Below, piece by piece: positions 32,445 through 56,861 of a stretch of 64,000 bases of DNA; the first letter of the stretch is position 1, and the number at the start of each line of letters is the position of its first letter. The position numbers and the translations under genes are program-made. A model generated the notes under the pieces. That model saw only the letters and a program-made list of their open reading frames with translations, did no database searches and had not been told where the DNA came from. The stretch comes from an uncultured Phycisphaerales bacterium (lineage in GTDB: Bacteria > Planctomycetota > B15-G4 > CAYZWU01), in the NCBI GenBank assembly GCA_964464495.1, contig CAYXGI010000009.1, forward strand, positions 42,498-106,497. The letters are read 5' to 3'.

Positions 32445-33296
32445 TCAGAAAATGTACTCTTTGCCCTGTTCGAGCAGGGCGACGTTTTCGAGGCCGAGAG
32501 CCTCGATCTCGTTGCTAATAGTTGTAAGGTATTCAGGTTTCAAGTGAGTGACGAAAACCTTCACGTTGCCGAGGGTTTTCTCGATTTCATGGCCGAAAGC
32601 GGTCGTCGAAAGATGTTTGGATATCTTCGCGATCTTCGCTTGATCGGCCGGAAAGGAGGCCTCGAGAAAAGTGGCCTTGAGATTCTTGACCTGGTCGAGG
32701 ATTTGAGCGAGACCTTCTAGAGAAGATGTGTCGCTGCAGATTGCGACAGTGGAGTCCGGATCCCGAATCAGGTAGCCGTAGCATTCCACGGAATGGTCCA
32801 TCGGGAAAGGGACGATCTCGATGTTTCCGATCGCCACGTTCTCACCGGCCGCGAGCACGGTCATTTCGAGAATATCCGTGTGCGCGTTGGAAAACTTCGA
32901 GAAATCGGGCCAGAGGTAGTCGTTGAAGAGATGGTCCTTCAAACAACGGATCGTGTCCTCGGGACCGAGAACCTTCACAGGCTTCGAGATGAGGGAAAAG
33001 ACATTGTCCAGAAGAAACGGCAGACAAGCGAGATGATCGATGTGGGAGTGGCTGACAAAAACATGACTGATCCGCGCTTGCTCTTCGATGGGAAGGACAT
33101 GAGCCAGCGCCCCCGCGTCTATTGCGATCCGATCGTCGATCAGGTACGACGTGGTCCACATCCCCGGCGCGTAGCCTCCGTAACATCCCAGTACTCGAAT
33201 TCTCAAGAAACCCCCTTTTCTATGAAGGTTTGTTGATGTCGACTGCCCATCCCTGTCGCTCGGGATCCTATCAGGGAACTCGGGGCTGGTCAACAT
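32445..33296 (-). CDS. MBL-fold metallo-hydrolase (class II cyclic-nucleotide phosphodiesterase-like)
   Basis: HxHxDH motif (VSHSHIDHLACLPF) and further His/Asp ligands (PMDHS, VTHLKPEY). The actual start may be an internal or non-ATG codon near 33200; the ORF-track start is used. Confidence 0.65.
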   Translation of the reverse strand: MLTSPEFPDRIPSDRDGQSTSTNLHRKGGFLRIRVLGCYGGYAPGMWTTSYLIDDRIAIDAGALAHVLPIEEQARISHVFVSHSHIDHLACLPFLLDNVFSLISKPVKVLGPEDTIRCLKDHLFNDYLWPDFSKFSNAHTDILEMTVLAAGENVAIGNIEIVPFPMDHSVECYGYLIRDPDSTVAICSDTSSLEGLAQILDQVKNLKATFLEASFPADQAKIAKISKHLSTTAFGHEIEKTLGNVKVFVTHLKPEYLTTISNEIEALGLENVALLEQGKEYIF

Positions 33297-33399
33297 GTTG
33301 CGTTTGTTAACTCTTTTTGCCTCAATAGGGGACGTGAATCAAAGAGATTTCCTGACTCGCGGGCGGGACGACTCTTACAACGACTGAGCAGTCTGCTTT

Positions 33400-35001
33400 T
33401 TGGAGTGGTGCATGATGGGATTTTTCCTGGCAACTGCGACCGACTGGGTCGGCTGGATCGCGGTTCTGGTCGCTGTCTATTTCATGGTAATTCTGATCAA
33501 GCAATCGCTCCGGCGCACGAAAGATCTGAGGTCGGTCCTGATCGTTGCCGCCCTCGTTCTCCTTCCCGCCGTGCTCCTGGCGTTTCTCTATTACGATGGG
33601 AATGTTCTCGGAGTCTTCGATCCTGATCTCGACGCGCAGAAGGCCGATCAGTGGTGGATCTTCGAGATCGAGAGGACCAATGGTGAAGATGAGGGCGCCG
33701 AGGCGATCACCGTGACGGTCAATCTTCTTGCGGCGTTGATCATCATCGCCACCCTGTACATTGTCATGACTGTCCTGATCTCCATCGCGTCGACGATGTA
33801 CTTCAATAGAAAAAAGACGGAGTGGCTCGCGATCCACAAGGCGCTGATCAAGTGGCCGATCGTAATCGTTGGGTGTCTCGTCTGTTTGAAAATCCAGATT
33901 GGGGCTATTCTCCTCGGCACGAGTGTCATCGTGATCGGCCTCGGACTTGTGTTGAAGGAGATGCTCGAAAACCTTTTTACGGGTATGGCGCTCGAGATGG
34001 AGGGCACCCTCAATCAGGGGGACTGGATCCAGGTCGGCAACAGCGATCAGGTGGGGCGCGTCTACGAAAAGAGCTGGCGCGTGACCAAGGTTCATACTCT
34101 CAACGACGAGTCGATCACCATCCCCAACAGGCTCCTGGGCACTGAAAAGATTCTGAATTACAACAAACCCGCCGGTCCACATGCCCGCAACCTTTACGTG
34201 GGCACCTCCTACAACGATCCGCCGGTCAAGGTCAAGGAGATCTTGAGGACGATTCTTATCCGCGAACCCGAAGTTCTCAACGACCCCCAGCCTCTCGTTC
34301 GTACCATCGAGTACGGAGATTTCGCCATCAACTTCGAGATGAAATTCTGGATCAGGAGTTATGCCAGGCGGAATTTCATCGAAGACAAGATCATGACCCA
34401 GATCTGGTATGCGTTCAAGTATTACGGTGTGCAGATCCCCTTCCCGATCCGGACTTTGCACATGAAGAAGATGGGGCACCTCGACGCGGAGAGCGACGCG
34501 ATCACCGACGAGGTGAAAGAAAAGCTCGATTTCCTGAGAGGCCTGCCCTACTTCAGCGGCCTCGTGCAGAAGGATCTCGAGTACATGGCTCTCAATTCCT
34601 TCAGGCGCAACTATGACGTGGGCGAACGCGTGGTCCACAAGAACGAGATCGGCGACGCCCTATACGTCGTGATGAGCGGCTGGTGCGATGCGTTGCTTCC
34701 CGACGGCCGCCGGCCGCGCATCGAAGCAGGGCAGTACTTCGGCGAGATGGGTCTCCTCGGGGCGAGTCCCCGAACCGTCGATGTGGCGGCGGGCGAAGAG
34801 GGGGCGCTCGTCATGAGAATCGACAAGCATTGCATGTCGGTTCTCTTCAGGAGCTATCCCGAACTCCTCGATCACTTCCGCGAAATTCGCGATGCCAGAA
34901 GAAAAGAACTCCCTGCCGAAGACAGGGAGGAGGCTGTGCGCAGAGTGGGACTGGTTCGGAAACTCTGCCTGGGGATGAAGGATTTCTTCAGGCCCTGGTA
35001 A
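33400..35001 (+). CDS. MscS-family mechanosensitive channel fused to C-terminal cyclic nucleotide-binding domain
   Basis: Multiple N-terminal TM helices. MscS beta-domain signature GDWIQVGNSDQVGRVYEKSWRVTKVHTLNDESITIPNRLL. C-terminal cNMP-binding domain (GERVVHKNEIGDALYVVMSGW...QYFGEMGLLGASPRTVDVAA). Confidence 0.8.
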   Translation: MEWCMMGFFLATATDWVGWIAVLVAVYFMVILIKQSLRRTKDLRSVLIVAALVLLPAVLLAFLYYDGNVLGVFDPDLDAQKADQWWIFEIERTNGEDEGAEAITVTVNLLAALIIIATLYIVMTVLISIASTMYFNRKKTEWLAIHKALIKWPIVIVGCLVCLKIQIGAILLGTSVIVIGLGLVLKEMLENLFTGMALEMEGTLNQGDWIQVGNSDQVGRVYEKSWRVTKVHTLNDESITIPNRLLGTEKILNYNKPAGPHARNLYVGTSYNDPPVKVKEILRTILIREPEVLNDPQPLVRTIEYGDFAINFEMKFWIRSYARRNFIEDKIMTQIWYAFKYYGVQIPFPIRTLHMKKMGHLDAESDAITDEVKEKLDFLRGLPYFSGLVQKDLEYMALNSFRRNYDVGERVVHKNEIGDALYVVMSGWCDALLPDGRRPRIEAGQYFGEMGLLGASPRTVDVAAGEEGALVMRIDKHCMSVLFRSYPELLDHFREIRDARRKELPAEDREEAVRRVGLVRKLCLGMKDFFRPW

Positions 35002-35015
35002 GGCCGATCCGACTA

Positions 35016-36209
35016 TTACTGGCCCGTGTATTTTTGGAACCGCTCGACGTTGAGTTGCCCCCTGTTCTTGAGTCCCAGTTTCACCATGTCCATTTTCATG
35101 GTGGTGATTCTCTGAGATGGAGTCGGGTGGGACGACATGCACTTGCCGAGGGTCTTCGAATCCCCGAAGACATCCCTGAACCGTTCCAGAAGAGTGATCG
35201 CCGCCTGAGGGTTGTAGCCGGCGCGGGCGAGGTAGACGAGAGATGCGCGGTCTGCCTCGTTCTCCATGACCTGGTTGTAGGGGTTTTGCGTGTAGGCGTA
35301 GAATTCATCGCCGATCGCAGTGAGCTCCTCGACCAGTTTCTTGAAGTCCTCGGCCTGCTCGGGGAGCTGTTCGTCCAACTCGGCGAGAGCGTCCTTCATC
35401 ATGTAGCGGTACTTGGCCTTGTTGAGCGATTGGACAGCGTGGCGCTCGGAGACGTGACCCAGCTCGTGGGCGAGGATCGCGGCGAGCTCGGCTTCGTTTT
35501 TACAGAAATCGATCGCGCCGCGGGTGATGAACAGGAAGCCGCCCGGGACGGAAAAGGCGTTCACTTCATCGGAGTCGAGAATGACGAAGTAATAGGTGAG
35601 GGTGTTGCGGGGGCTGACCTGGGCGAGCGTTGTACCCACGAAGGAGACGTACTCCCAGAGTTTCGGATCGTTCCACTCGGGCGTCTCGTGGAGGATGCGG
35701 GCGGAAACACCCTTGCCGAGCTCGATCTCGTCGGCGTCGGAAAAGGATGATGTCAGGTCACCGCTTATGGCGTCGCGTCCGGCCTTGCGGTTTTTGAGGT
35801 CCTCGAGGTCATCGATGACCGCCTGGTCTTCTTCCAACGCGGCCGGCAGGCGGGAGAGAGCGGTTTCCTTGTCGCCCGCGATGACCGCCTTCCGTCTCGC
35901 CTCGGCAGCCTCCTCTGCAGAGGGTTCGTCCTTTTCGGCAGGCTCTTCGGCTCTGGCCGGCTCTTCGGCAACGGCCACGACCTCTTCGGGAGGTGCCTCT
36001 TCGGTCACGGGTTCCTCATACCCCTCTTCGTACTGCGGTCGCACCCTGTCGACGGTCCGTGTGACTCGCGATTGCGACGAGGTGGACGCAAAGGAGGGCT
36101 TCTTGGCAAGCGGCGCTGTCTGGCCGGTCTGTTTCTCGGTGGTGGCGCACGAGAGACTGCTGAGAAGGAGGATGGTACAGACGACGAGGCTGATGAGTTT
36201 CCGCATCAT
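35016..36209 (-). CDS. M48-family zinc metalloprotease lipoprotein (BepA/LoiP-like)
   Basis: Lipobox LLLSSLSC. HEXXH zinc motif AILAHELGHVSERH. Acidic/Ala-rich linker region. Confidence 0.8.
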   Translation of the reverse strand: MMRKLISLVVCTILLLSSLSCATTEKQTGQTAPLAKKPSFASTSSQSRVTRTVDRVRPQYEEGYEEPVTEEAPPEEVVAVAEEPARAEEPAEKDEPSAEEAAEARRKAVIAGDKETALSRLPAALEEDQAVIDDLEDLKNRKAGRDAISGDLTSSFSDADEIELGKGVSARILHETPEWNDPKLWEYVSFVGTTLAQVSPRNTLTYYFVILDSDEVNAFSVPGGFLFITRGAIDFCKNEAELAAILAHELGHVSERHAVQSLNKAKYRYMMKDALAELDEQLPEQAEDFKKLVEELTAIGDEFYAYTQNPYNQVMENEADRASLVYLARAGYNPQAAITLLERFRDVFGDSKTLGKCMSSHPTPSQRITTMKMDMVKLGLKNRGQLNVERFQKYTGQ

Positions 36210-36673
36210 TATTTCAAGCCTCCATTGCGAATGAAGCTTTCGAATCGGTTGAAATTCAACCGGCGGTCCATGACACTCTTTACTTTGGTCGTGTCAGTCC
36301 CGTTCTTGTTCGCGTAGAGATCGCCTGAAAAACCTTTGGCAACGAGACCGGACGTGGCCGGAGTGGCTGCAACGGGAAGTTTCAGATCTCCTGCAGGAGC
36401 GGCATCGGTCTTGATTTCACAGAAGACCCACCCCTTCTTGTCGAGGGATTCGACCTCGACCTGCTTCCACGATCCCCTCTCCCTGAGAATGGTGAGGATC
36501 TCGCCCTCCTTGATCTCCGCCAGGGGTTTGAAAGCCTTGTTCCAGCGGGGGAAGAGCTTGAGACCGTCCTTGCCGACTTTCAACGAGGACTTGTCCTGGA
36601 GCGACATGGAGAGGGCGGTTGCGGCGAGAAGAAGAAAGACGATGAGAAAAAAGAATTTAGAGCGATCAAGCAT
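36209..36673 (-). CDS. membrane-anchored SH3b-domain protein
   Basis: Start at ATG 36673 (GGAG RBS 8 nt upstream) gives MLDRSKFFFLIVFLLLAATALS as TM/signal, followed by an SH3-like beta domain (KEGEILTILRERGSWKQVEV...GWVF). Its stop overlaps the M48 gene start by 1 nt. Confidence 0.6.
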   Translation of the reverse strand: MLDRSKFFFLIVFLLLAATALSMSLQDKSSLKVGKDGLKLFPRWNKAFKPLAEIKEGEILTILRERGSWKQVEVESLDKKGWVFCEIKTDAAPAGDLKLPVAATPATSGLVAKGFSGDLYANKNGTDTTKVKSVMDRRLNFNRFESFIRNGGLK

Positions 36674-36729
36674 TGTGAGACTCCAGATTTTACGATCCCA
36701 CATGAGTTCCTGTAAAAGAGACCCGACTT

Positions 36730-39066
36730 CTATTTGCTTTCAATCCTGAAAACTCCGCCCCAGTCTTGAGCAGGCGGAGATTTGGCGAACTGCGAGCAGC
36801 GGTCGAGAAAGACAAGTGAAGGCCGGTCTCCGGTTTTCTTGCTGATTTTATCAAAGAGATCGGCCGCTTCCCTGAAGCGGCTTTCTCCGTAGAGCGACCG
36901 CGCTCTTTCAAAATCTATCAGGAGCTCTTTGTCAAGAGGATTTGTTTCCTCTGCTCTGGAGAGCACCTGGTAAATCCCGATGGGGGGGGCTTCTTCGACC
37001 AGGCCCGGAACCCTGATCTTGTCGACGAAACGTGACTGGATCGCATCGCCCGCCATGGTGTATGTGCTGTCACCGATCAGGATCAGCGTGCCGTAAACCT
37101 TGTTGACTCCCTCGAGGCGTGAGGCGAAGTTCACCGACGATCCGATCGCGGTGTAACTGAACCTGTCGAGCGAGCCCACGCACCCCACCGTGGCTTCTCC
37201 CGAATAGAGACCGATTCGTGTGACGAGGGCCGGATCGCCCGCCTCGACAGCGTTGGAGTTGAATACGTCGAGGCGGCGTTGGCATTCGAGAGCTGCCTGG
37301 CAAGCGGCTCGTGCATGGTTCTCGATCGGCAAGGGAGCACCGAAAATGGCGACCACCGCATCGCCGATGTACTTGTCGAGAGTCCCTCCGCAATCGGTGA
37401 TCGCGTGGGTCATCTCGGTGAGGTAGGCGTTGAGGTGGTCGGTGAGCCGTTCGGGATTCTCACGCATCTCGGGTGTGTTCGAGATGCTCGTGAAGCCCTG
37501 GATGTCCGAGAAAAAGACGGTGATGTCCCTCTTTTCGCCTCTCGTGAAGAGGGCATCGGGATTACTGATGAGATGCTGCACCACGGCGGGCGGCGCAAAG
37601 TGCTTGAACATGCGGGAGATCTCCCGACTCCGCCGCCCTTCGGTGAAGTAGTTGTAGGTTGTCCCGCTCGAATAGGCCAGCGCGATGCCGAAGAGAGGGG
37701 CGATCGTGTCGAGCCAGAATCCCGCTCCCAGAAAAAGCCACGCCGCGGCCGCCATATAGACGAGCGCGATGCCCAGAATCGAGACGAGCTTGAGCATGTT
37801 GAGCCTGACGAGAAAGGTGATCAGGGCGGCTGTCGCGGCGAGACACGCCGCCAGGATCGCGCGTGCCAACAGACCGAGGCGGGCGATCGCCTCACCTCTG
37901 AGAACACTCTCTGTTAGGGCCGCGTGCACCTTGACGCCGGGATAATTCTCGGAAATGGGTGTCGCCTTGAGGTCGTAGAGTCCGGGCGCGTTTGCGCCGA
38001 GAAAGACGATCTTGTCCTTGAAGAGCCCAGGTTCGAGATAGGAACTCTCATCGATCTCGTCGGCCGGCATCCCCTGATCTTTGAGCATGGAACAGAACAC
38101 GCGTCCAGCCGGGTAAATCTTGAAATACCCCGCTTCGAGGCTGGTGATATCTCTCTCGTCATTGTCTCGCCACTTGACGAGAACATCTCCGCTCGGCGTC
38201 AGAGGCAGCACGAGCCTCTCTTCTTCGGATTTCCGGTCGAGAAGGAGACTGCTCCCTTCGACTGCGAGCTCCCAGCTTTCAGCCCCGTCCGTCGATTCGA
38301 TCGAGGCCAGGGCCGCCGCAAGGCCGAGGGACGGATAGTGATGCCCGCCAAAGGAGACGAAGGGCCGGACCCGTCTGATCACCGAGTCCGAATCGGGTTG
38401 CGCGCAGACCGCGCCGAGACGAAGAAACTCTTCGGCCCCGTTGAATTCCTGGAGAATACCGGTGTAGGGCAGGAACACCTCCTGGTAGGGGCCGTCCTCG
38501 GTGCGGCCGAAGGGAAGGTCCGATTCTTCAGCGCCGCTGACCGTGATCGCACTCGTCGCGAGGCATGCCTTCTGGAGGGGTGTGAACTCGGGCAGGTCGG
38601 GGCTCGGATTCTCGTAGGCGGCGAAATTGATCGTGTGAATGACGAAGGGATTTCCCTCTTCGTTCTGGAAACAGGTCCCGGCTCCGAGCGCGCTGTCGCC
38701 ATCGAGCGCATCCTGGGAATAAGGATTCGAGAACTCGAAGTCGAAGGCGAGGGCCCGCGCACCCTCGTTGGCCATGTACTGAATGATCATGTCGTAGACG
38801 AGCCGGTTCCAGGGCCAGTTGAAGATGTAGGCTCTCTCGTCCTTGTCCTTGTACTTGAGATAGTAGTCCCGTCCCCAGTCGAGAGTCGACTTGTCGATCA
38901 TGATGATGCTGACGATGTCGCTCTGCGTCTCGTCTTCCGTTCCCGCCCGGGCGAGAAGGTCGTATACGTCGTGCTCCCAGCGTTCGAAAAAGTTGACCTC
39001 GACGAGCAGAATCAACAGGAGAGCCAACAGACCCGTGAAAAGCAGAATCGCCGTGCGTCGTTTCAT
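36730..39066 (-). CDS. CHASE2 sensor domain-containing class III adenylate/guanylate cyclase
   Basis: 778 aa. N-terminal TM plus large periplasmic CHASE2-like region, then TM helices. Cyclase homology domain (FSDIQGFTSISN...DKYIGDAVVAIFGAPL...RIGLYSGEATVG). Confidence 0.85.
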   Translation of the reverse strand: MKRRTAILLFTGLLALLLILLVEVNFFERWEHDVYDLLARAGTEDETQSDIVSIIMIDKSTLDWGRDYYLKYKDKDERAYIFNWPWNRLVYDMIIQYMANEGARALAFDFEFSNPYSQDALDGDSALGAGTCFQNEEGNPFVIHTINFAAYENPSPDLPEFTPLQKACLATSAITVSGAEESDLPFGRTEDGPYQEVFLPYTGILQEFNGAEEFLRLGAVCAQPDSDSVIRRVRPFVSFGGHHYPSLGLAAALASIESTDGAESWELAVEGSSLLLDRKSEEERLVLPLTPSGDVLVKWRDNDERDITSLEAGYFKIYPAGRVFCSMLKDQGMPADEIDESSYLEPGLFKDKIVFLGANAPGLYDLKATPISENYPGVKVHAALTESVLRGEAIARLGLLARAILAACLAATAALITFLVRLNMLKLVSILGIALVYMAAAAWLFLGAGFWLDTIAPLFGIALAYSSGTTYNYFTEGRRSREISRMFKHFAPPAVVQHLISNPDALFTRGEKRDITVFFSDIQGFTSISNTPEMRENPERLTDHLNAYLTEMTHAITDCGGTLDKYIGDAVVAIFGAPLPIENHARAACQAALECQRRLDVFNSNAVEAGDPALVTRIGLYSGEATVGCVGSLDRFSYTAIGSSVNFASRLEGVNKVYGTLILIGDSTYTMAGDAIQSRFVDKIRVPGLVEEAPPIGIYQVLSRAEETNPLDKELLIDFERARSLYGESRFREAADLFDKISKKTGDRPSLVFLDRCSQFAKSPPAQDWGGVFRIESK

Positions 39067-39089: not shown

Positions 39090-41105
39090 TCAGTGTGCGC
39101 AGATGTCAAGGACGAGCAGGGCATAGGAGGTGGCCAGAACCGGATTTCCCTCGAACCACCGCGGCGACCTCTCATTGATCCACGACCCGTCGATTCGCTG
39201 GATGCTCAGGATTTTCTGAGCCAGCTCCTTTTTCCACGGGTGGGGCGTTCCGCGCGAGTCGGTGATGATCTCGCGTCCAAAGGCGTCGAGAGCCCTCGCC
39301 ATGGTCAGGTAATAATAGAACAAGCCCTGCTGTCCGGCGTCGGGGTTTTTCGTCTGCTCGAACCCCGGATTCTCCTCGAGAGTATAATGGTTTTCGACCC
39401 ACGTTACTGCAGCTTTGACCCGTTTGTCCTTTCGATCGAGTCCAGTGAAGATCAACGATTTCAAAAGGGCGTAGGTCATCGAGCCGTAGGATCGTGCCAC
39501 GAAAACACCCTTGTCCACCTCGCTGACGCCTGCCTTGGAGTCACCTGGATAGTAGATTCCGCCTCCGTCCGTACCAGCCACGACTTTTCGCCCATCACTC
39601 AGGATGACCTCGGTGGGATTGGTCTCGGCCTGGTTCTGGCACTTCCTGATGAAATTCAGGGCTTTCTGAAAAGCCTCGTGATCTTTGTCGAGACCGGCAG
39701 CCCGTAGCGCGTCGAGCGCCATCTGCGTGTTGGAGAGGTCGGGCCGCTCATCGCCGCCATAACCCAGCCCGCCGTAAAAGGGATCTTCTTCCATCGAATA
39801 CCCTTCGTCCTCGTCGGCCTGGACAGCGACGAGAAAGGCGCGTGCCTTCTCGATCGTTTCGGAGTAAGCCGGATCGCGCGAGTCGACGAAAGCCATGAGC
39901 GCCACTGATGTGACGTACGTCTTCAGACCGGTGAGAAAGATGCTCCCGTCGTCTTTGCGAAGAGAATCGAGATAATGGAGCCCTTGATCGACGTAAGACG
40001 GTGAAGAGCGTTCGAGGAGGCGCGCACTCCTGATCGCTGCCGAAAGGGCCATTCCGGTGATCCCAGGGTCGTCGTATCCGTCGAAACCGAACTTGCCTGA
40101 TTTCTGGTTTCCGTCGAGAAAATCCAGTCCTTTTGCCACGGCATCATTCAGCCCAAGCGGTGTTGCCACGATGTCGGGCAGGGGGGGGGCTTCGTCAGGG
40201 GGCGCAGCCTGACGCTCCGCCTTCTGAGCACTCTCAGCACATAGGGACATGGCGGCCGCGATCAGGGCGGACTCCGCGAGGTGGTTCTTCATCGGTTGAT
40301 CGTCAAGATCGGCGATGCGGGAGATTGCGATCCCCGCCATGCGGTCTGCCCAGAGCAGCGGCGGGGTTCCACTGTTTTCGAGTTCGAGAAAGAGTTCGCA
40401 AGCGGCCAGGATGGCAATGGGAGAGAGTTCGGGAGCGTCCGCTTGGCGGATATTTCTCTCTAATTTTTCCCGCCATTCGGTCACGAAGCCGGCTGCTATT
40501 TCCCGACCGCTCATCAGGCGACAAACGCTCTTGTAGAGTTGCGCCCGCGGACCCTCACCGCACCGGGATTCGGCAGTGGCCAGAATGGAGGCTCTCTCGT
40601 GTGCGAAAGCGAGGCACAGCGCAAAGCAGGTTTCCGGGTCGATCGGGCTGTCGGTCTGCTCGATCTGCTTGACCAGGAATTCAGTCGCTCCAGATATGGA
40701 GTCAGCGTATCCAACTCCGTTGACCCTCGAGAGAGCAGCCACGACGAGCGCCGTCGAACGCACGATGTCGCCATGTTCGGCTGGTTTAAAGGAGCCGTCC
40801 GCGCGTTGTGTCGCAATCAGGCCCTCGGCCGCCTTCCGTACGAAGGGGCCGTCCCTGTCAGTGTATTTCCGAGGAGACGTGGCCATGGTGAAAAGCACCA
40901 TCGATGTCACATCCGGTTGCAGGGACTGACGTCCGTAGGTGCCGTCCTGATTCTGACAGGTGCGAAGATCGCGGATCGTGGCGTCGACCATGTCCTTGAG
41001 ATCTTGACCTTGAGCCGGAGAACTCAAGCTGAGTGCGATCAGCAAGCAACCCAGAATCGAAAGAGCCGAAAAGAGTCTGATCTTCCGCTGTTTTTGAACT
41101 CTCAT
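39090..41105 (-). CDS. secreted prenyltransferase/squalene-oxidase-repeat (alpha/alpha-toroid) protein
   Basis: Start at the internal Met (ATG 41105) gives signal peptide MRVQKQRKIRLFSALSILGCLLIALSLSSPAQG. Repeated QxxDGSF/GxW-type motifs are typical of terpenoid-cyclase/protein-prenyltransferase toroid repeats (QNQDGTYG, QRADGSFK, RKDDGSIF, QRIDGSW). Confidence 0.65.
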   Translation of the reverse strand: MRVQKQRKIRLFSALSILGCLLIALSLSSPAQGQDLKDMVDATIRDLRTCQNQDGTYGRQSLQPDVTSMVLFTMATSPRKYTDRDGPFVRKAAEGLIATQRADGSFKPAEHGDIVRSTALVVAALSRVNGVGYADSISGATEFLVKQIEQTDSPIDPETCFALCLAFAHERASILATAESRCGEGPRAQLYKSVCRLMSGREIAAGFVTEWREKLERNIRQADAPELSPIAILAACELFLELENSGTPPLLWADRMAGIAISRIADLDDQPMKNHLAESALIAAAMSLCAESAQKAERQAAPPDEAPPLPDIVATPLGLNDAVAKGLDFLDGNQKSGKFGFDGYDDPGITGMALSAAIRSARLLERSSPSYVDQGLHYLDSLRKDDGSIFLTGLKTYVTSVALMAFVDSRDPAYSETIEKARAFLVAVQADEDEGYSMEEDPFYGGLGYGGDERPDLSNTQMALDALRAAGLDKDHEAFQKALNFIRKCQNQAETNPTEVILSDGRKVVAGTDGGGIYYPGDSKAGVSEVDKGVFVARSYGSMTYALLKSLIFTGLDRKDKRVKAAVTWVENHYTLEENPGFEQTKNPDAGQQGLFYYYLTMARALDAFGREIITDSRGTPHPWKKELAQKILSIQRIDGSWINERSPRWFEGNPVLATSYALLVLDICAH

Positions 41106-41492
41106 TGTGATCTCAATCCTTTTTTTGACGTCACGGGACAAAGAGCTATTGTGGCACAACGAATAGAATTCACGAAGGTTCTTTGCATATTGGCCTGACC
41201 TCACGCTTTCCATCTCTTTGGGGGGGGCGCGGCGTGAAGATTGACTGCTCGGAATGCCTGGTAAAATAGCGACGATCTGTACGCGGCGCACGGTGTGTGG
41301 GTCAATTCTGCACTCTGTTCGGACCGTTGTGATTACAGTTACCCTCTGACTCATCGTTGAACAACCGGTACTCTGGGCGAAAAATCTCCAGAGTCGAGCG
41401 CGGAGTGGCAAATTTTACTTAACCTCTATAATTTGAGGATATTATGAAAATTATTCCACGGAACCGGCCAATGGCACAGTGAAGTCCGAATA

Positions 41493-41512
41493 CCATGAAC
41501 AAATGTTCATGG
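41493..41512. promoter_or_regulatory. 20-bp perfect palindrome CCATGAACAAATGTTCATGG (GAAC-N4-GTTC core; Cheo/LexA-box-like operator)
   Basis: Seen directly in the AT-rich intergenic region between divergent genes 39090..41105 (-) and 41860..43512 (+). A TGATACAAT extended -10-like element lies at ~41666. Confidence 0.4.
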
Positions 41513-41859
41513 TCTCTGAAATCCTTTCAGCGATCGCGGAAGTGGTGTGAGAATTCTGATCAATGAGTCCATTATTTTAATCATCATAATGTATTTAAAT
41601 TAAACTGGATAGAAGTCTTTGATAGATTTTCTCTTTCGGACGCACTAATCGTTTTTTATTTGATACAATGACACTGACGCCGTTGTAATCAGTGTTGAAA
41701 GCGATGTTGCTTGATTCTGCAAAATCTCGTCACCACTGATAATGTGTGGATTATTCTGGAGAATTTTGCCGGAAAAATTAGAATTTGAAACCATTCTTCG
41801 AGGGTTTTCTATGCCAGGGAGGCACGAGTCGATACTTGCCCTCTTGAAGCGAGGATAGT

Positions 41860-43512
41860 ATGCCAGCAAAAAAGACGAGCCCCATGCTCAAGAAGATCTG
41901 TTCTCTCCTCAAAAGTGAGAACACGGAATTCCAATGCGCAGCGTCGATGGTGCTGGGTGAATTGGGCTCGAAGGATTCGCTCATAATCAAATCACTGGGC
42001 GAAGTTTTGAACAACGGGGAAGACAAGGTCCTCAAAGGGTTGATTCTCGATGCCTTTGCCAAGATCAAATCCAAGGAATCGCTGAAATACCTTCTGCCTT
42101 TTCTTTTCAACAAATCCTTTCAGGAGAGTGAATTCGGGAACAAGGCGATCGCCATCGCGTCCTCTCTCAGCAACGACAGCGCCAGAGAACTCAAATCCCT
42201 CTTGAAGAAAGCCAACGCTGAGAAGAGGAAGGTAATCAACTCGATCTTCATCAAAATGAAAAGTGTGGAGGGCCTCAAAGTCGTTCTTGATTCGCTCTTT
42301 GACGACGACGAGACGGTGATCGCCGATATCTGCAGGCTGATGAAGCACGAAATGAAGCTTCTCAATGGCAAGGAGCGAAAATCCTTTAGTTCACGTGTTG
42401 AAAAATTCCTGATCACTCCAAAAACACGCAAAAATTTGAACGCTACTGCCGCGGCGATCAAGATTCTCGGCTACATCGGTGACTCTAACGCGTTGAACAC
42501 GCTGATGATGTTCACTGTCCTCCAGAATCACCCGACGATCCGGAGCTACGCGCTAACTTCTTTGAGAGAAATCCCTTTTCACGACAAGGTCAAGAACGAC
42601 GTCATCCGCAAGCTGGTTTCCTTCTTGAACGAAAAGGAATTCAACGCCATCGTCAGCCCAACCCTCGACATTCTTTCGCGAGCTCCGATTCATTCGAGCC
42701 TGAGCGACATCATCATCAATCTCCTCGGGAGCGACCACGATGCAGTGAGACGATTCGCGCTCAGGAAGATGAGAGAATTCAACACGGTAAAGGTCGTCAA
42801 GATCCTCATCGAAAAACTTTCAGATCAGGACCCGCGCATTCGGGACCTCGCTGCCGAATCTCTTTGCTGGCTCGATTCCGCTCGCAACGTTCTTCTCGAT
42901 AACCTCTTGAAAGAAAAAGATCTGGAAAGGTCGAGACTTCTCTCGAGGATTCTCCGGCCCCATTCGACCAAGTTCAGAAAAGACCAAGTCAACAAGATCG
43001 GCGATGTTCTCAAGGGGCATCTCAAAACGGAGAGCCCTCTCCAGGAGCCACTGATTCTCCTTCTGAAAACACGCTCCCCTGACTATCTCCACGATATCCT
43101 TCTGAGCCGTGCGGTCGAGTTTAAGAAGAGGAAAAAATTCGAGAGTGCCGTGAAGGTCCTCGATCTCTTAAAGAAGAACGAACACCTTACCGTCGAGGGG
43201 CAGTATCTCATGGGTGTCTGCCTCCTCAGGCTGTCCAAAAAAAGCATCATCAGGGTGCATCGCGATTCTGATGAATGCCTCAATATCTTTCAGAGATTGA
43301 TAAAGAACGACTCCTTCCCCCTCTCCCAGAAGCTGCGGAGCGACTCGTCTCTCGATCAGGCCGATCTCTTCTACGTGGGATACCACTTTTCCGAGAAAAT
43401 GCAGACCGAGCGTATATTGGGCGGAGAATTGCTCAGATATCTCGCGAAGAAGAAGTCCAAGGCCAAGGTCTGTGTCGCGTCCCGCGACAAGATCCTTGAG
43501 GAAGGTCTCTGA
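41860..43512 (+). CDS. HEAT/PBS-lyase-like repeat protein, lysine-rich, on a low-GC segment
   Basis: 550 aa all-alpha protein with repeated ~30-40 aa helix-turn-helix units (LGELGSKDSLIIKSLGEVL, LGYIGDSNALNTLMMF, LREIPFHDKV, RFALRKMREFNTVKVVKILIEKLSDQDPRIRDLAAESL). GC is ~47% (counted on the first ~150 nt) against ~65% in flanks. GGGAGG RBS upstream. Confidence 0.7.
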   Translation: MPAKKTSPMLKKICSLLKSENTEFQCAASMVLGELGSKDSLIIKSLGEVLNNGEDKVLKGLILDAFAKIKSKESLKYLLPFLFNKSFQESEFGNKAIAIASSLSNDSARELKSLLKKANAEKRKVINSIFIKMKSVEGLKVVLDSLFDDDETVIADICRLMKHEMKLLNGKERKSFSSRVEKFLITPKTRKNLNATAAAIKILGYIGDSNALNTLMMFTVLQNHPTIRSYALTSLREIPFHDKVKNDVIRKLVSFLNEKEFNAIVSPTLDILSRAPIHSSLSDIIINLLGSDHDAVRRFALRKMREFNTVKVVKILIEKLSDQDPRIRDLAAESLCWLDSARNVLLDNLLKEKDLERSRLLSRILRPHSTKFRKDQVNKIGDVLKGHLKTESPLQEPLILLLKTRSPDYLHDILLSRAVEFKKRKKFESAVKVLDLLKKNEHLTVEGQYLMGVCLLRLSKKSIIRVHRDSDECLNIFQRLIKNDSFPLSQKLRSDSSLDQADLFYVGYHFSEKMQTERILGGELLRYLAKKKSKAKVCVASRDKILEEGL

Positions 43513-43823
43513 GCGAACGAGCTCCCATACATTAGTTGATCCCACTCTTCTCATTCCCCGATCCAGGCCCTCCGTGGTCTGAGATCCCACTGTTTTCGCA
43601 CTTTCCGCCGGACCACGTCACGCTCGTCGGGAATCTCATGCCCGACAGCAGTCCATGCCCGAAGTCGATGATTTACGCGGACTAAAGACTTGCGCGCATT
43701 CTGGCGATGATTAGGTGGATAAGAAACCTGGGAGTATTCCGTTCCGACGGGGCGCTTTCCGTTCCGACGGGACGTACTCCCTTTGGACAGTGTCGAAATT
43801 ACCGATACGCTTGGAACCAAGCT

Positions 43824-45113
43824 ATGCGCCTACTAGAAGCGGACAGAAGTCTCGAACTGCTCGAAGAGAACCGAAAGAGACTCGACGAAGTCACCTTCGA
43901 ACTTCTGAACACCTATGAACACCTCGCCGCGATCTATGAACTGGCGGCACGTTTGTCAAATACACGGTCGATCAGCGACGCGGCCCGGCTGACACTCTCC
44001 TCTGCCGTGAACGTGTCCGAATCGACAGGCGGCGTAATCATCATTCCGCGCCACGGCGTGATGGAGACCATTGCGGGTCTCTATTCGACCAAAGAGATCG
44101 AAGACTATGCCCAACTGAAAGCCAAGCAGCACCTCAACGAGTGCCGGTACGAGGACAAGGTGCAGCAAAGGATCTCAGCGCACGACGGACGCTTTCTGTC
44201 GAGTACTCTCTACATACCCCTCGCCGTCGGTGGAAGACGGGACGGCATTCTGTTCCTCTTTTCCACGAAACAGAAATCCTACTCGAGCGTGGACGTGAAG
44301 ATCACGCGCGTCCTCGCCGGCCAGGCAGCACTCGCTGTCAAGAACCTCGTCATGCTCGATGAACTCGAGGAGAAGAACGCGCGCCTGTCCGAGGCTCTGA
44401 GAGACCTCGGGACCGTCCAGAACGAGCTCATCCGATCGGAGCGCTTCTCGGCCCTCGGTGAGATGTCGAGCATGATCGTTCACGACATCAAGAATCCGAT
44501 GAGCGGGCTTCAGGGTTACGCCCAACTGCTTTATGCCACTGCAGAGTCCGTCCTTCCCGACCAGGTGCGGGAGTACTCCGGCCTGATCATCCAGGAAATG
44601 AGGAGGCTCTCCGGCCTGACCGAGGAAATACTGGATTTTTCGCGGGGAGTGGACAGCAAACTCAACCTCAGAAAAATGGAACCGCGCGACGTGGTCAACA
44701 CAGCCTGGCCCCTGCTCAAATCGGACCTCGAAAGCCACGGCATGACGATGGTCAGGGGAAATCTCGAAACCCAAAAAAAGGTCAGAGTCGATTCCGACAA
44801 GATGGAGCGTGTTCTGATCAATCTTGCTGTGAACGCACGGCAAGCCATGGGATCGGGCGGCTGTCTGACTGTTTCGATTCACGAGACCGACAAGTGGGTG
44901 GAGATTTCCTTCAAGGATACAGGCACGGGAATCCCTGAGGACCGTGTCAATGAGATCTTCGATCCCTTTGTGACGCGAAAGCGGGGGCAGAGTCTCGGCA
45001 TCGGCCTGGCCATGTCCCGCTGGATCGTTCATTCTCACGAAGGGGATGTTCTACTCGCCGAAACCGGTACCGACGGCACCAGAATGGTGGTCAGGCTGCC
45101 GGCAGTGACATGA
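43824..45113 (+). CDS. cytoplasmic GAF-domain sensor histidine kinase
   Basis: Start at the internal Met (MRLLEADRSLELLE). GAF-like N-terminal region. HisKA H-box SALGEMSSMIVHDIKNPMSGL. HATPase_c motifs (NLAVNARQAM, DTGTGIP, GQSLGIGLAMS). No TM segment. Confidence 0.8.
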   Translation: MRLLEADRSLELLEENRKRLDEVTFELLNTYEHLAAIYELAARLSNTRSISDAARLTLSSAVNVSESTGGVIIIPRHGVMETIAGLYSTKEIEDYAQLKAKQHLNECRYEDKVQQRISAHDGRFLSSTLYIPLAVGGRRDGILFLFSTKQKSYSSVDVKITRVLAGQAALAVKNLVMLDELEEKNARLSEALRDLGTVQNELIRSERFSALGEMSSMIVHDIKNPMSGLQGYAQLLYATAESVLPDQVREYSGLIIQEMRRLSGLTEEILDFSRGVDSKLNLRKMEPRDVVNTAWPLLKSDLESHGMTMVRGNLETQKKVRVDSDKMERVLINLAVNARQAMGSGGCLTVSIHETDKWVEISFKDTGTGIPEDRVNEIFDPFVTRKRGQSLGIGLAMSRWIVHSHEGDVLLAETGTDGTRMVVRLPAVT

Positions 45114-45125
45114 TGGTTGGAGAGA

Positions 45126-45667
45126 CGATGGGCAGGAGCGGATTCACTCTCATAGAATTGCTGATCGTGGTGATCATACTGGCCATTCTGGCCGGGATCG
45201 TCATTCCTCAGTTTAGAGCCAATATCGACGACGTGAAGATGGCGAGTGTCGAAACCAATGTGGAAGTGGTCCGCAAGGCGATCGAGATCTACCACACGGA
45301 CCATGGCGGGACCTTTCCGGGCCATCCTGACGGCGACACTTCGCTCAGCCCGACCGAAGGGGTTCTCATCAACCAGCTTCTTCTCAAAACCGACAAGCGC
45401 GGCGTCATCGATCCGGGCGGAACTTGTGGACCATACCTCAGAGCGCAAGCCGGATTTTTCCCCATCAATCCCTTCAACAAGAAAGCCGCAGTCGCGGTCT
45501 ACATGAGAAGCGGCGAGGTGCCGACCGTTGACAGTGAGTTCGGGTGGTACTACATCGCGTCAACGGGCGACTTCAATGGCGTAACCCCTGAATCCGCTGA
45601 GACTCCGGAGACACCGCCCGCCGACATGCCTCCTGGCCGCGGCCGGCGTCCAGAGGGCAGCCTCTGA
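45126..45667 (+). CDS. GspG-like major pseudopilin / type IV pilin (prepilin N-terminal methylation domain)
   Basis: MGRSG|FTLIELLIVVIILAILAGIVIPQF class III signal. GGAGAG RBS 4-5 nt upstream. An alternative start lies at 45110 (ATGA overlap with the kinase stop). Pro/Glu-rich C-terminal tail. Confidence 0.8.
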
Positions 45668-45860
45668 TCGTGTGATCGCGCAGCGTCAGGTGCGCGGCCG
45701 AGTTTCAGAATCCTTGTGGTCCCCACATGCTCGGCGTGATCGATCTTTTTTTTACTCTCGATTAAATTTCCCCAATCCCGGTGCCGATAAGCAACTAATG
45801 ATGAACATACTTTAATACGCCGACGATGGAGACAGTCTGTTCGGGATAAGGAGAAAGGAA

Positions 45861-46337
45861 ATGAATATGCATCGTAAGGAAGGTTTTACACTGGTTGAAC
45901 TCTTGATCGTGGTCATCATTCTCGGGATTCTGGCCGCAGTCGTGATTCCGCAGTTCGGAAGCGCGTCTCTGGAAGCCAAGGAATCAGCGCTGATGACCAA
46001 TCTCGCCGCTGTGCGCGGAGCGATCGACCTCTACCGGATCCAGCACCTGGAGGTGTTTCCAGGGGATCTGAGCGGCGTCGTGAGCTGGGCTAACTTCGAG
46101 ACGCAGATGACAGCGCAAACCGACGTCGATGGCGCCGCGGGCACAGACTATGGTCCGTATCTCAGAACCGGTATTCCGCGCAATCCGATCAACGGGTTCA
46201 ACACGGGCACCGAAGGTGCGATCCCCGGGGCTCCTGATGGACTCACGGGATGGTACTACGACCAGTCGACAGGCGAGCTCCGGGCGAATGCGGCCGGAAC
46301 CGGCCCTTCGACCGGGATCGACTATTTCGACATGTAA
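45861..46337 (+). CDS. GspG-like major pseudopilin / type IV pilin
   Basis: MNMHRKEG|FTLVELLIVVIILGILAAVVIPQF. AAGGAGA RBS. 158 aa. Confidence 0.8.
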   Translation: MNMHRKEGFTLVELLIVVIILGILAAVVIPQFGSASLEAKESALMTNLAAVRGAIDLYRIQHLEVFPGDLSGVVSWANFETQMTAQTDVDGAAGTDYGPYLRTGIPRNPINGFNTGTEGAIPGAPDGLTGWYYDQSTGELRANAAGTGPSTGIDYFDM

Positions 46338-46467
46338 GACAGTCATGGGACGGATGAAGCGAGGGTGAGGTGGGACGGCTCCTCGAGGCGAGATGCTCTC
46401 GGGGAGCTGTTTCATGCCGCCAACAACACTGACCGGGAAGGGGGCGAACGTCGGGGAGACGTGAGCG

Positions 46468-47010
46468 ATGGGAAATACCGGATCGAAAAGCAGGCCGGCA
46501 ACTCATAATGCCGGACAGACACTCACGGGGAAGAACCGAAACGGTTTCACACTCGTTGAAGTCATGATTGCCGTGGTGGTCGTCGGTATCGGCGTCGCCG
46601 CATCGCTTTTCGGCATGGGAACCAGCGTGATCAACGCAGACGCCGGCCGCGACGTGCTCGTCGCGGGGATCCTCTCCGACTACATCTGGCAGTATTCAGA
46701 AGAGCTCGAATTCTGGGATCCTCAAGAGAACGAGAATTTCGGGATCGAGACGGACGAAAACGGTTTCGACGACTACGACGACATCGACGATCTTCACGGA
46801 CAGGTCATATCCCCACCCGTGGGCGCAGACGGTGAAATTCTGACATCATTCCCGAACTGGACTCAAGAGATCACCGTTGCCGGACTCGATCCGGTCTCTT
46901 TCCTGGCGCTCGTCAATCCAGGGGTCACTCCTGTCCGCAGAGTGCGGGTCACCATCCTGAAAGCCGACAGGGAGGTGGAGAGTTACGAGTGGATCGTGAC
47001 GAGACTGTGA
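46468..47010 (+). CDS. minor pseudopilin (GspI-like)
   Basis: GFTLVEVMIAVVVVGIGVAASLF prepilin helix, preceded by an unusually long N-terminal leader in the ORF-track model; the true start may be later. 180 aa. Acidic mid-region. Confidence 0.65.
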   Translation: MGNTGSKSRPATHNAGQTLTGKNRNGFTLVEVMIAVVVVGIGVAASLFGMGTSVINADAGRDVLVAGILSDYIWQYSEELEFWDPQENENFGIETDENGFDDYDDIDDLHGQVISPPVGADGEILTSFPNWTQEITVAGLDPVSFLALVNPGVTPVRRVRVTILKADREVESYEWIVTRL

Positions 47011-47017
47011 GGCGATT

Positions 47018-48145
47018 ATGAAAAGAGCATGTGAAAAAGACAGATCTTTCCTTCAGAGGGGAACGATTCTGGTCCCCTGCCTGTTCATGCTCACTCTCAT
47101 CTCCATGATCACTCTCGGAATCCTTAACGTGGGCGGTGTGGGAGCGAACATCTCAGCGGCGCTGGCCCAGAAATCCCAGGCGGAACTCGTCGCCACATCG
47201 GGCCTCGAGATCGGTTACCGAAGGCTGTGCGAGGATCTCAACTATTCGGGCGAGTCCTGCTTGCCGCTTTCGATCCCCGCGTCGTCTGTCGAGATCTCGG
47301 TTCTGCCGCTGGCCAACAACGAGTACGAGATCACTTCGCTGGGGCGGGCGCGCGATGCAGAGCGGCTGCTCAGGACCAAGGTCCAGGGCAGGCAGTGGGT
47401 TTACAACTATCCTCTCTCCGTGGGCGGCGATCTGGGGCTCTGGGGATCGGCGAAAATCCTGGGCGATTGCTACGTGACCGGTGCCATCCGCGGTGGGAGC
47501 CCGGCTTTCATCGCCGGCGACCTCCACCTTCCCGGAGACAGGGATATCCAGTACGACGTGTACGGAAATCCCACGCGTGTCGATGGCTACGTCATTTCGG
47601 GAATCGAAGGAAACATTCACACCTATGCGCGGGCTCTCGATTTTCCCGGGATCTCGCTTGCGGCGCTGCGCGAACAGGCGATCGCCGCCGGCCAGCTCTA
47701 CTCGGGAGCTGTCTTCCTCGAGAATCAGGTCTTTGACGGTGTTGTCTACATCGAGAACACCTATCTGACTCCGGTTCTCTCGAACGTGGTGATCAACGGA
47801 ACCCTGGTCTGCGAAGACGTCTGGATCCTGAGCGTGGGCAACGGCTTCCTGAAGGTCCGCTGCAACGAGGGTGTTTGCGCCAATGTGGCGGTTATCGCCC
47901 CGGAGACCTGTTTTGCCGTCGGGGTCAACGCCGAGGTTGATCTCTACGGACTCAGCTTCTTCGGTGCGGGGCATTTCTTCGGCAAAGGGACTTTTACCGG
48001 CCCTCTCGTCATCTGGAACACCCTGGTGACCTACGGCGGATCGTCCCTCTGCTGTCAGTTTCCCGCGGTACTCAAGGACTTCATCTATTCCAACCTGATG
48101 TGGTCCGAACACAGTATCAAAGAGTTGGAGTTCGAGGTTCAGTGA
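47018..48145 (+). CDS. minor pilin-like protein (PilX/GspK-like N-terminus) with beta-helix-like C-terminal region
   Basis: N-terminus RSFLQRGTILVPCLFMLTLISMITLGILNV resembles the PilX_N/GspK hydrophobic segment. The C-terminal ~250 aa show ~20-25 aa periodic G/V/I-rich repeats (VISGIEGN, VFLENQVFDGVVYIENTY, VVINGTLVCEDVWILSVGNG) suggestive of a beta-solenoid. Confidence 0.6.
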   Translation: MKRACEKDRSFLQRGTILVPCLFMLTLISMITLGILNVGGVGANISAALAQKSQAELVATSGLEIGYRRLCEDLNYSGESCLPLSIPASSVEISVLPLANNEYEITSLGRARDAERLLRTKVQGRQWVYNYPLSVGGDLGLWGSAKILGDCYVTGAIRGGSPAFIAGDLHLPGDRDIQYDVYGNPTRVDGYVISGIEGNIHTYARALDFPGISLAALREQAIAAGQLYSGAVFLENQVFDGVVYIENTYLTPVLSNVVINGTLVCEDVWILSVGNGFLKVRCNEGVCANVAVIAPETCFAVGVNAEVDLYGLSFFGAGHFFGKGTFTGPLVIWNTLVTYGGSSLCCQFPAVLKDFIYSNLMWSEHSIKELEFEVQ

Positions 48146-48609
48146 AAACTAATCGCGACGCATTCACGCTGGTTGAGTTGATGGTGACGATTGTCATCCT
48201 TGCCGTTCTGGGAGGCATTGTGGTCACGGCGACAGTCGACACGGTGAGCACCAAGGCGGAAATCAACTCACGTGAAATCAAGAGTGCCATTCGCTATGCC
48301 AAGGTTTTCGCTCTTTCCCAGCGGTGCGCACACAGGATCATCTTCGATTCGGGCAGCAACGCGATCAGGGTCGAAGACGACGCCGGTAATGTCGCCTGGA
48401 ATCCGGTGACCTACTCGCCCTACGAGTGGACACTCGCCCACGGCACGATCGGGTCTGTCGATTTCGACGGCGGCAACTTTCTGGAATTCGGCACCTCGGG
48501 TGAGGGCGAGTCGGGCGGCAGCTTTGAAGTCGCCTACAACGGATTGACCCAGACCTTCACGGTCTCGCCGATCACGGGGCGTGTCGCCCTCGAGGAGGTG
48601 AGAAATTGA
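48142..48609 (+). CDS. minor pseudopilin (GspH/FimT-like)
   Basis: GTG start overlapping the previous stop (GTGA). DAFTLVELMVTIVILAVLGGIVV prepilin helix. ~155 aa. Confidence 0.7.
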   Translation: MKTNRDAFTLVELMVTIVILAVLGGIVVTATVDTVSTKAEINSREIKSAIRYAKVFALSQRCAHRIIFDSGSNAIRVEDDAGNVAWNPVTYSPYEWTLAHGTIGSVDFDGGNFLEFGTSGEGESGGSFEVAYNGLTQTFTVSPITGRVALEEVRN

Positions 48610-49706
48610 AGTGCAACAGCCTGGCAAGCCAATCTGGTTTCACTCTGATCGAGATCCTTCTCGTCGCCGCGATCGGCGGAGTCCTGCTCACGGCCCTGAC
48701 CATTTCGACGGGAGTCTTTCTCGACAACTACTCTGTAGCGCTCGATAGCCAGGATTTGACTCTCGCCCATCAGATCGCTCTCGATCGGGTTCTCGATTCG
48801 ATCACCGAGGCCGAGGAGATCGAAGTGGAGTCTTCCAATTCGATCCGGCTCACCTTTCCCGATGGGAACAGCGATCGGTATTTCTGGTCGGGCAACGCGG
48901 GCGAATGCCTCAAACTCGAACGGAACGGCGGCGATGCCCATCCCTTTGTCGACGGCGTGGTGAGTCTCGACTTCACGGGCAATATCGCTTCTGCCTACAA
49001 CGAGGTGATTCAGGTGGAGACCGAGAATCTTCTGAGTTTCGATGACTTCAGCGGCTACGCGTTCGGCTGGGAAAACCATGCCATCGAGCCGTCGAGCCTG
49101 CATGGATTCACCTTTTACATCACCTGGAACGAGAGGGTGGAGGAGATCGCGCTGACGCAGCTCGATCTGAGGCTCGCCAAGCTGCCCGCGCAGCAGGGAG
49201 ATCTCAAGATTTCGCTTCTCGAAGGGATCACCGAAAAAGTACCCCGCATGAACGGGGACGCCATCGCGAGCTGCGTGATATCCAACGCCGACATTGCCGC
49301 GGCCTACTGGGATGGACATGACTGGGTGATCGGATCGACGACGTTTGTCTTGACAGAAGATTTCGTCATCCAGCCCAACAGGTACTACTGCCTCCTCTGC
49401 GAACCCGCGGGCGGGGTCGAAGCGGCCACGATGGCCGTGGCGTGCATCACGAGCAATTACGGCCCTGTCAACGGCAGCGTTTACATCGGCTCGGTCGACG
49501 GGGGGGCCACATGGGATCCTCCCCTGACCTGGGGTGAATACAGGCAAAAGGATGTCCCTTTCCAGCTGACGGGAGACGTTCAGTTTTACGAACGGATCCC
49601 TGAGCAGTATGTCAAGTCTGTCGACGTGACGCTCGGGATCGAACTTGGCGGGAAGGAAGAATACGGCTCGGGAAGAGCCCAAGTGCGAGGAGGTGGTGAG
49701 AGGTGA
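48606..49706 (+). CDS. large minor pseudopilin (GspJ-like, 366 aa)
   Basis: MKCNSLASQSG|FTLIEILLVAAIGGVLLTALT class III signal. Long C-terminal globular region. 4-bp overlap with both neighbours. Confidence 0.65.
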   Translation: MKCNSLASQSGFTLIEILLVAAIGGVLLTALTISTGVFLDNYSVALDSQDLTLAHQIALDRVLDSITEAEEIEVESSNSIRLTFPDGNSDRYFWSGNAGECLKLERNGGDAHPFVDGVVSLDFTGNIASAYNEVIQVETENLLSFDDFSGYAFGWENHAIEPSSLHGFTFYITWNERVEEIALTQLDLRLAKLPAQQGDLKISLLEGITEKVPRMNGDAIASCVISNADIAAAYWDGHDWVIGSTTFVLTEDFVIQPNRYYCLLCEPAGGVEAATMAVACITSNYGPVNGSVYIGSVDGGATWDPPLTWGEYRQKDVPFQLTGDVQFYERIPEQYVKSVDVTLGIELGGKEEYGSGRAQVRGGGER

Positions 49707-51397: not shown

Positions 51398-51402
51398 GAG
51401 AG

Positions 51403-52514: not shown

Positions 52515-52591
52515 GTCTAAAGTATTCGACGTGGAAAGACGATTACTTGTTTAACTCAAGAGTGTTAACCACTTGTTATGGGGTGGATTCC

Positions 52592-56845: not shown

Positions 56846-56861
56846 GGCGAGGAGGCGCGAA

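Follow-up and report, generated by a model that had tools for sequence, protein, structure and literature searches.

Operators and upstream sites that work from a distance by looping are well known, among them araO2 of Escherichia coli at about -280, deoO and the sites of enhancer-binding proteins. To our knowledge, almost nothing has been described on transcriptional regulation in the Planctomycetota, and we know of nothing for the uncultured Phycisphaerales. For LexA, GAAC-N4-GTTC is the motif of the Firmicutes and the Actinobacteria, with variants in the Cyanobacteria and Chloroflexi (PMC4951493). Within the Planctomycetes-Verrucomicrobia-Chlamydiae (PVC) superphylum, an SOS response is documented for the Verrucomicrobia only, where the motif is TGTTC-N4-GAACA (Erill et al. 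2016, PMC4951493); our literature searches found no LexA motif for the Planctomycetota. The LexA of Synechocystis, which has a non-SOS role, binds upstream of minor-pilin operons (pilA7 and pilA9; PMC4759255). A palindrome of related sequence, CNAACG-NN-CGTTNG, is the box of the TetR-family regulator PaaR in Thermus thermophilus (PMC6651687). Here we analyzed a 14-bp dyad, TGAAC-AAAT-GTTCA, in a 64,000-nucleotide stretch of DNA (the window) from an uncultured Phycisphaerales bacterium (GenBank assembly GCA_964464495.1, contig CAYXGI010000009.1, positions 42,498 to 106,497). The original prediction had likened the core of this dyad to a LexA operator. We consider it to be probably a distally placed operator or upstream site, bound by a homodimeric regulator of a secretion/pilus-like operon headed by a gene for a HEAT-repeat protein.

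To determine how widely the dyad is kept, we compared the locus with orthologues of the HEAT-repeat protein that form a graded series from 94% down to 47% protein identity, with upstream DNA compared for 13 of them. The protein has an invariant motif, AAESLCWLD, and the pattern back-translated from it matches three species-representative Phycisphaerales metagenome-assembled genomes (MAGs). This places the organism in the class Phycisphaerae of the Planctomycetota, in agreement with the type of a sigma factor encoded in the window (see below). Copies of the locus identical to that of the window are also present on JGI and Logan metagenome contigs. The dyad is found in six lineages, the window included (Table 1), with the consensus TG[A/C]AC-N4-GT[T/G]CA and an AT-rich N4. 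When the six are anchored on the dyad, the 10 half-site positions have a mean pairwise identity of 93% and the four spacer positions 57%, the spacers being AAAT, GTTT, ATTC, ATTT, GTTT and AATT. The 40 bp on each side of the dyad are only 31% identical, and the surrounding intergenic DNA is essentially unalignable. Half-site positions are invariant at 9 of 10 over four lineages and at 8 of 10 over all six. For fourfold-degenerate sites of the HEAT gene, the invariant share is 21% over the same four lineages and 46% over the three closest. Conservation is thus selective for the half-sites. No further TGMAC-N4-GTKCA is present in the window or in any compared locus beyond these dyads. A regulon within the window was also rejected, as the window has no second TGAAC-N4-GTTCA even with one mismatch allowed.

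The position of the dyad is fixed relative to the HEAT gene. In the six lineages it lies 361-386 bp from the HEAT ATG and 278-298 bp from a conserved TTAGAAT downstream, the second distance being 282 bp in each of the three closest. Its distance to the divergent gene, which codes for a secreted alpha-alpha-toroid protein, varies from 183 to 456 bp. As the distance is constrained on the HEAT side and unconstrained on the other, the HEAT-led cluster is likely the target of regulation and the toroid gene a less likely one. A long spacer between the divergent genes (372-838 bp) was found in all orthologous loci. The dyad is absent from L008-L010, with HEAT proteins of 54-65% identity, and from the most distant loci, L011 and L013 (47-50%). 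In L008-L010 a second HEAT-repeat gene, coding for 638-649 amino acids, is placed between the toroid and HEAT genes (L008 478-2394, L009 466-2382, L010 275-2224), and loss of the dyad in these three coincides with the rearranged upstream region. In L011 (50% identity), 12 nt matching just the right arm, ATGTTCATGGTC, are present at 2610-2625, -391 from the HEAT gene, without a left half-site. This match may be a relic or chance.

The element therefore has dyad symmetry, conserved half-sites, a looser spacer, a non-coding location and a fixed position relative to a gene, as is general for operators of dimeric proteins. Free variation of the spacer, constancy of the half-sites and loss of the outer arms together argue for a site bound by a dimeric protein rather than a hairpin. 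Each monomer would read one 5-bp half-site, with the AT-rich 4-bp spacer not read base-specifically. The putative regulator, probably of the helix-turn-helix type, would be encoded elsewhere in the genome. Its target would be the rightward operon for the HEAT protein, kinase, pseudopilins, secretin and GspE/F, a type II secretion or type IV pilus-like system of this uncultured marine Phycisphaerales clade. With 278-298 bp between the dyad and the conserved promoter-like element downstream, such a regulator must act at a distance or via an unmapped upstream promoter. It could do so by looping to a weak proximal site or half-site, by upstream activation, or by controlling that other promoter. 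In having one conserved dyad that keeps its place a few hundred bp ahead of a promoter, the locus would by analogy resemble distal sites of the araO2 and deoO type. Unlike these and the sites of enhancer-binding proteins, the dyad has neither a sigma-54 promoter nor a clear second operator.

Several observations weigh against a distal operator. At about 290 bp, the dyad is unusually far from any promoter-like element, and the spacing between the two shifts by -4, +12 and +16 bp among the lineages, showing no strict helical phasing. For looping, a second complete site is lacking, and only loose GTTC/ATTC half-site-like sequences were found just past the -10 element. A match to TG[A/C]AC-N4-GT[T/G]CA is expected by chance in only 0.0014-0.0038 of shuffled upstream regions, which speaks for the dyad, though the A/C and T/G degeneracy of this motif was defined only once the orthologues had been seen. 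Finally, the scanned open reading frames (ORFs) of the cluster do not include a DNA-binding regulator domain. A regulator encoded in the cluster was accordingly rejected, as the cluster codes for two histidine kinases, a truncated receiver and a STAS-like ORF, with no DNA-binding domain among the ORFs scanned.

Table 1. Coordinates of the dyad, its copies in related lineages and other features of the window. Positions of copies are relative to the ATG of the HEAT gene.
Feature	Position	Strand	Remarks
Conserved 14-bp dyad, TGAAC-AAAT-GTTCA	41496-41509		Putative dimer binding site
Dyad in the window, CCA TGAAC AAAT GTTCA TGG	-364		HEAT identity 100%
Dyad in L014, CTA TGAAC GTTT GTTCA TGG	-364		HEAT identity 94%
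Dyad in L007 (MAG locus L016), CTA TGAAC ATTC GTTCA CAC	-362		HEAT identity 93%
Dyad in L012, CCG TGCAC ATTT GTTCA TAA	-361		HEAT identity 74%
Dyad in L029, CAT TGAAC GTTT GTTCA CAT	-386		HEAT identity 73%
Dyad in L026/L027, TTG TGAAC AATT GTGCA TAC	-382		HEAT identity 69%
Extended inverted repeat, ACCATGAACA-AA-TGTTCATGGT	41492-41513		10-bp arms, 2-nt centre; this genome only
Divergent intergenic region	41106-41859		754 bp, 44% G+C; dyad mid-way
Sigma-70-like promoter candidate, TGGAGA-N16-TAGAAT	41757-41784	+	278-298 bp downstream of the dyad; from a consensus scan
Small ORF, MKIIPRNRPMAQ	41445-41483		GAGGA Shine-Dalgarno
HEAT-repeat protein gene	41860-43512	+	First gene of the co-directional cluster 41860-60411
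Secreted alpha-alpha-toroid (squalene-hopene-cyclase-like) protein gene	39090-41105	-	Divergent from the HEAT gene
CHASE2 adenylate/guanylate cyclase gene	36730-39066		Follows the toroid gene in the divergent operon
MscS channel gene, with cyclic nucleotide monophosphate (cNMP)-binding domain	33400-35001		Near the locus
Class-II cyclic AMP (cAMP) phosphodiesterase gene	32445-33296		Near the locus
TetR-family gene (TetR_N + TetR_C_24), FadR/PaaR-like	14455-15084		
CGAACG-AA-CGTTCG	14411-14424		The one further GAAC-N4-GTTC of the window; agrees fully with the Firmicutes LexA consensus

The promoter candidate of the HEAT gene shares its -10 region with the TTAGAAT mentioned above. Both TTAGAAT and the adjoining GGATTATT are invariant in HEAT upstream regions down to 63-69% protein identity, suggesting that this element is likely the core promoter of the secretion/pilus-like operon. 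On inspection, no -10 or -35 hexamers conserved among the six lineages flank the dyad, and a promoter overlapping it was rejected because no hexamers are shared on either side. Downstream of the dyad, the best matches to the sigma-54 promoter GG-N10-GC reach 5-7 of 11 positions and are unconserved between lineages. With no conserved GG-N10-GC, the dyad was also rejected as the enhancer-binding-protein site of a sigma-54 promoter.

Other parts of the intergenic region are also conserved. In the three closest lineages, the blocks 41626-41672 and 41728-41859 are more conserved than the neighboring coding DNA, and the 132 bp before the HEAT ATG are about 95% identical. The block at about 41626-41672 includes an extended -10-like sequence, TGATACAAT, at 41661-41669. 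One of these two blocks may represent a second promoter, and the other a leader that is structured or bound by protein. The leader itself has an invariant CCTC-N7-GAGG hairpin at 41839-41854 that would sequester the Shine-Dalgarno sequence, and a GAGGG upstream (about 41803) could compete for CCCTC. The hairpin and the GAGGG are retained in six lineages while the loop between diverges. RNAalifold gave weak support for a leader structure, with no covariation in the Shine-Dalgarno stem.

In the window alone, the element is less striking. The sequence described by the original prediction as a perfect 20-bp palindrome, CCATGAACAAATGTTCATGG at 41493-41512, differs from its reverse complement, CCATGAACATTTGTTCATGG, at 2 of 20 positions, both of them central. 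It is thus self-complementary at 18 of 20, the imperfection arising because the central AAAT is not self-complementary. The GAAC-N4-GTTC core within it is present as described, at 41497-41508. Also borne out were its distances to the neighboring genes, 388 bp on the divergent side (gene start at 41105) and 347-367 bp on the HEAT side (ATG at 41860), and its low-G+C setting, the window as a whole having about 59% G+C (Table 1). The actual inverted repeat of this genome is slightly longer, with 10-bp arms (Table 1), but in each arm the outer 5 bp belong to the lineage and are not retained in L007, L012, L029 or L026. The window has two GAAC-N4-GTTC sequences, against 1.56 expected, and four perfect inverted repeats with arms of at least 10 and a spacer of at most 10, against about one expected per 64 kb. 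The chance of such a repeat inside the 754-bp spacer is about 1.2%. Taken alone, the palindrome is mildly unusual and is weak evidence; we hold the dyad to be real because it is conserved in relatives, not because it is palindromic. The longest perfect inverted repeat of the window is at 22037-22062, GGTCGGAGGTGG-TG-CCACCTCCGACC, with 12-bp arms. It directly follows the 3' end of a carbamoyltransferase gene on the minus strand (22098-23129), probably as a terminator hairpin.

The other GAAC-N4-GTTC of the window, at 14411-14424, is between a promoter-like element, TTGACG-18-TATAAT (region from 14379), and a TetR-family gene. The solved proteins most closely related to the encoded one are for the most part TetR/AcrR regulators without a name; B. 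subtilis FadR (3whb) is also among these relatives. A homologue from the Gemmatimonadaceae (L030, gene 1044-1667) is 41% identical and adjoins an enoyl-CoA hydratase gene. At the corresponding place (L030, 965-1024), 20 bp before the start codon, it has TGAACG-AG-CGTTCGA. The 14411-14424 site fits the PaaR box of T. thermophilus and is comparable to the Thermus PaaR sequence CNAACGNNCGTTNG. As the box travels with the TetR gene across phyla, the site is the autoregulatory operator of the TetR protein. A second SOS box at 14411-14424 was rejected, since the site accompanies the FadR/PaaR-like TetR gene into the Gemmatimonadaceae. Like the operators of FadR/PaaR-like TetR proteins, which serve a dimeric helix-turn-helix repressor, the conserved dyad is a 14-bp GAAC...GTTC palindrome. 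However, those operators keep an inner CG and overlap the promoter of their own gene, whereas the inner four bases of the dyad vary. With its variable inner bases and no TetR gene adjacent, the dyad does not have the features of a FadR/PaaR-like TetR operator.

We also examined whether the dyad could be a LexA operator of the Firmicutes-like form (T)GAAC-N4-GTTC(A), at which repression of the secretion/pilus-like operon, or of an unannotated transcript, would end once DNA damage triggers LexA self-cleavage. The likeness noted by the original prediction is genuine. The dyad matches the B. subtilis consensus CGAACATATGTTCG at 11 of 14 positions and shares with the Firmicutes and Actinobacteria operators (CGAAC-N4-GTTCG) the 14-bp length, the 5-bp half-sites, the GAAC/GTTC core and the AT-rich N4, a 5-N4-5 arrangement typical of LexA boxes. 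The core is intact in four of the six lineages (the window, L014, L007/L016 and L029). One half-site is broken in the other two, to GCAC in L012 and GTGC in L026, and the outer positions are T/A, not C/G, in all six. The Fibrobacter LexA box, reportedly described by Mazon et al. (2004), is similar to the half-site variant TGCAC. Relative to the Verrucomicrobia motif, the only LexA motif characterized in the PVC superphylum, the dyad has the same half-site letters and 14-bp length, but the half-sites are in the opposite order, making the two mirror images. In the Verrucomicrobia, GAAC-N4-GTTC arises only between tandem sites, and the dyad has no tandem arrangement. LexA regulon searches use a -250 to +50 window around the start codon (PMC4951493). 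Rather than overlapping a promoter as LexA operators do, the dyad is outside that interval at 361-386 bp from the HEAT start codon, and a gap of some 290 bp to the promoter-like element makes it unsuited to promoter occlusion. The flanking genes are the secretion/pilus cluster and the toroid/CHASE2 cyclase genes instead of SOS targets, a distinction that is not absolute, as LexA can control pilin operons (PMC4759255). As predicted, no lexA is encoded in the window by tblastn with the E. coli and B. subtilis LexA and the E. coli RecA or by Pfam scans of about 50 ORFs. Nor did tblastn find lexA or recA in the compared loci or the Pfam scans a repair gene in the window. The TetR operator in the same window carries GAAC-N4-GTTC as well, and this core therefore does not by itself point to LexA here. 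As neither promoter overlap nor SOS target genes were found when tested, we do not class the dyad as an SOS box. The evidence at hand leans against LexA, and we regard a LexA operator as improbable. That the dyad represents a LexA box, the first to be recognized in the Planctomycetota, with a motif midway between the Firmicutes and Fibrobacter types and control over the secretion/pilus cluster from a distance, is likewise improbable. If LexA did bind it, the arrangement would parallel the non-SOS LexA of Synechocystis upstream of its minor-pilin operons.

The 5-N4-5 architecture is also that of the FNR-type box, TTGAT-N4-ATCAA, and the PrfA-type box, TTAAC-N4-GTTAA. A regulator of the CRP/FNR family, or another cyclic-nucleotide-responsive protein, would then link the secretion/pilus cluster and the toroid-CHASE2-cyclase operon to cAMP or cyclic GMP, and genes for cyclic-nucleotide functions abound nearby (the CHASE2 cyclase, the class-II cAMP phosphodiesterase and the cNMP-binding MscS channel). 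This argument comes purely from gene context. The half-site exactly matches no characterized CRP/FNR box, no CRP-family gene is in the window, and the spacing of the dyad from the promoter-like element is that of neither class I nor class II sites. We consider a CRP/FNR-type box quite improbable. The consensus sequences of dif/Xer, parS, IHF and the Fur and LacI types did not fit the dyad either. The repeat could instead be read as an RNA or DNA hairpin with a role in attenuation, termination or the processing of a long 5' leader, or as a piece of a small RNA. The fold is strong in the window (-13.1 kcal/mol) and in L014 (-16.9 kcal/mol), with z about -4.5, and in L014 a C-to-U change keeps a G-U pair and a T-to-G change lengthens the stem. 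In L007, however, the stem is down to 5 bp (-6.0 kcal/mol, z -1.0), and L012 loses it in that register, with -2.6 kcal/mol in a different one. No U-tract or T-run follows the repeat, and no conserved promoter precedes it. Rfam gave no match at the gathering score or at E<=1 save one spurious match elsewhere. On the unconserved stem, the missing T-run and the lack of an Rfam match, a hairpin, terminator or small RNA was rejected and is very unlikely. A leader peptide with an attenuator, represented by the small ORF MKIIPRNRPMAQ, was rejected as well, since the ORF is lost in L007 by a change of its start ATG to ACG and has no frame-specific conservation. In translated comparisons near the dyad, stretches conserved at the DNA level were conserved in every frame, and no others were. 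The alternative role offered by the original prediction, regulation of an unannotated short transcript, found no backing in a conserved ORF, a conserved promoter or an Rfam match. A functionless palindrome arising by chance in an AT-rich spacer would agree with the roughly one inverted repeat with arms of at least 10 expected per 64 kb and with GAAC-N4-GTTC being at its expected frequency. Yet position and half-sites are conserved in six lineages despite 31% identity in the flanks. That comparison effectively refutes chance, which is scarcely credible as an explanation.

A distal operator, the reading we prefer, would make the dyad an ordinary candidate transcription-factor site, phylogenetically footprinted in a barely studied lineage. 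As such, it provides a testable handle on the control of a large secretion/pilus-like cluster and could be used as an affinity-capture probe or as a query for motif scans. Were the motif also present on the lexA and recA promoters of the Phycisphaerales, it would define the LexA motif of the phylum together with an unusual target. A practical lesson is that a GAAC-N4-GTTC core by itself is no indicator of an SOS box.

By Pfam scans and ORF translations, the cluster at 41860-60411 codes for the HEAT protein, a GAF histidine kinase, five prepilin-type N_methyl proteins, PilM and a PilO-like protein. It also encodes a secretin, a TPR protein, a PAS histidine kinase, a truncated receiver, the GspE ATPase and GspF. 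In the receiver-domain protein after the PAS histidine kinase (region 56870-57492), Pfam covers only the first 48 of 111 profile positions. The ORF at 57142-57492 resembles a STAS-domain anti-sigma-factor antagonist by sequence alone. The shortened receiver and the STAS-like ORF suggest partner-switching control in the cluster rather than a DNA-binding response regulator.

On the divergent side, a highly conserved block, GCTATTGTGGCACAACGAATAGAATTCACGAAGGTTC, is at about 41145-41190, 40-85 bp upstream of the toroid gene. It includes TGGCAC but no sigma-54 -12 element and is probably the promoter or an operator of the toroid gene. Genes for cyclic-nucleotide signalling are concentrated beside the locus, at 32445-39066. 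The window also encodes a planctomycete-type extracytoplasmic function (ECF) sigma factor, at 2670-3227.

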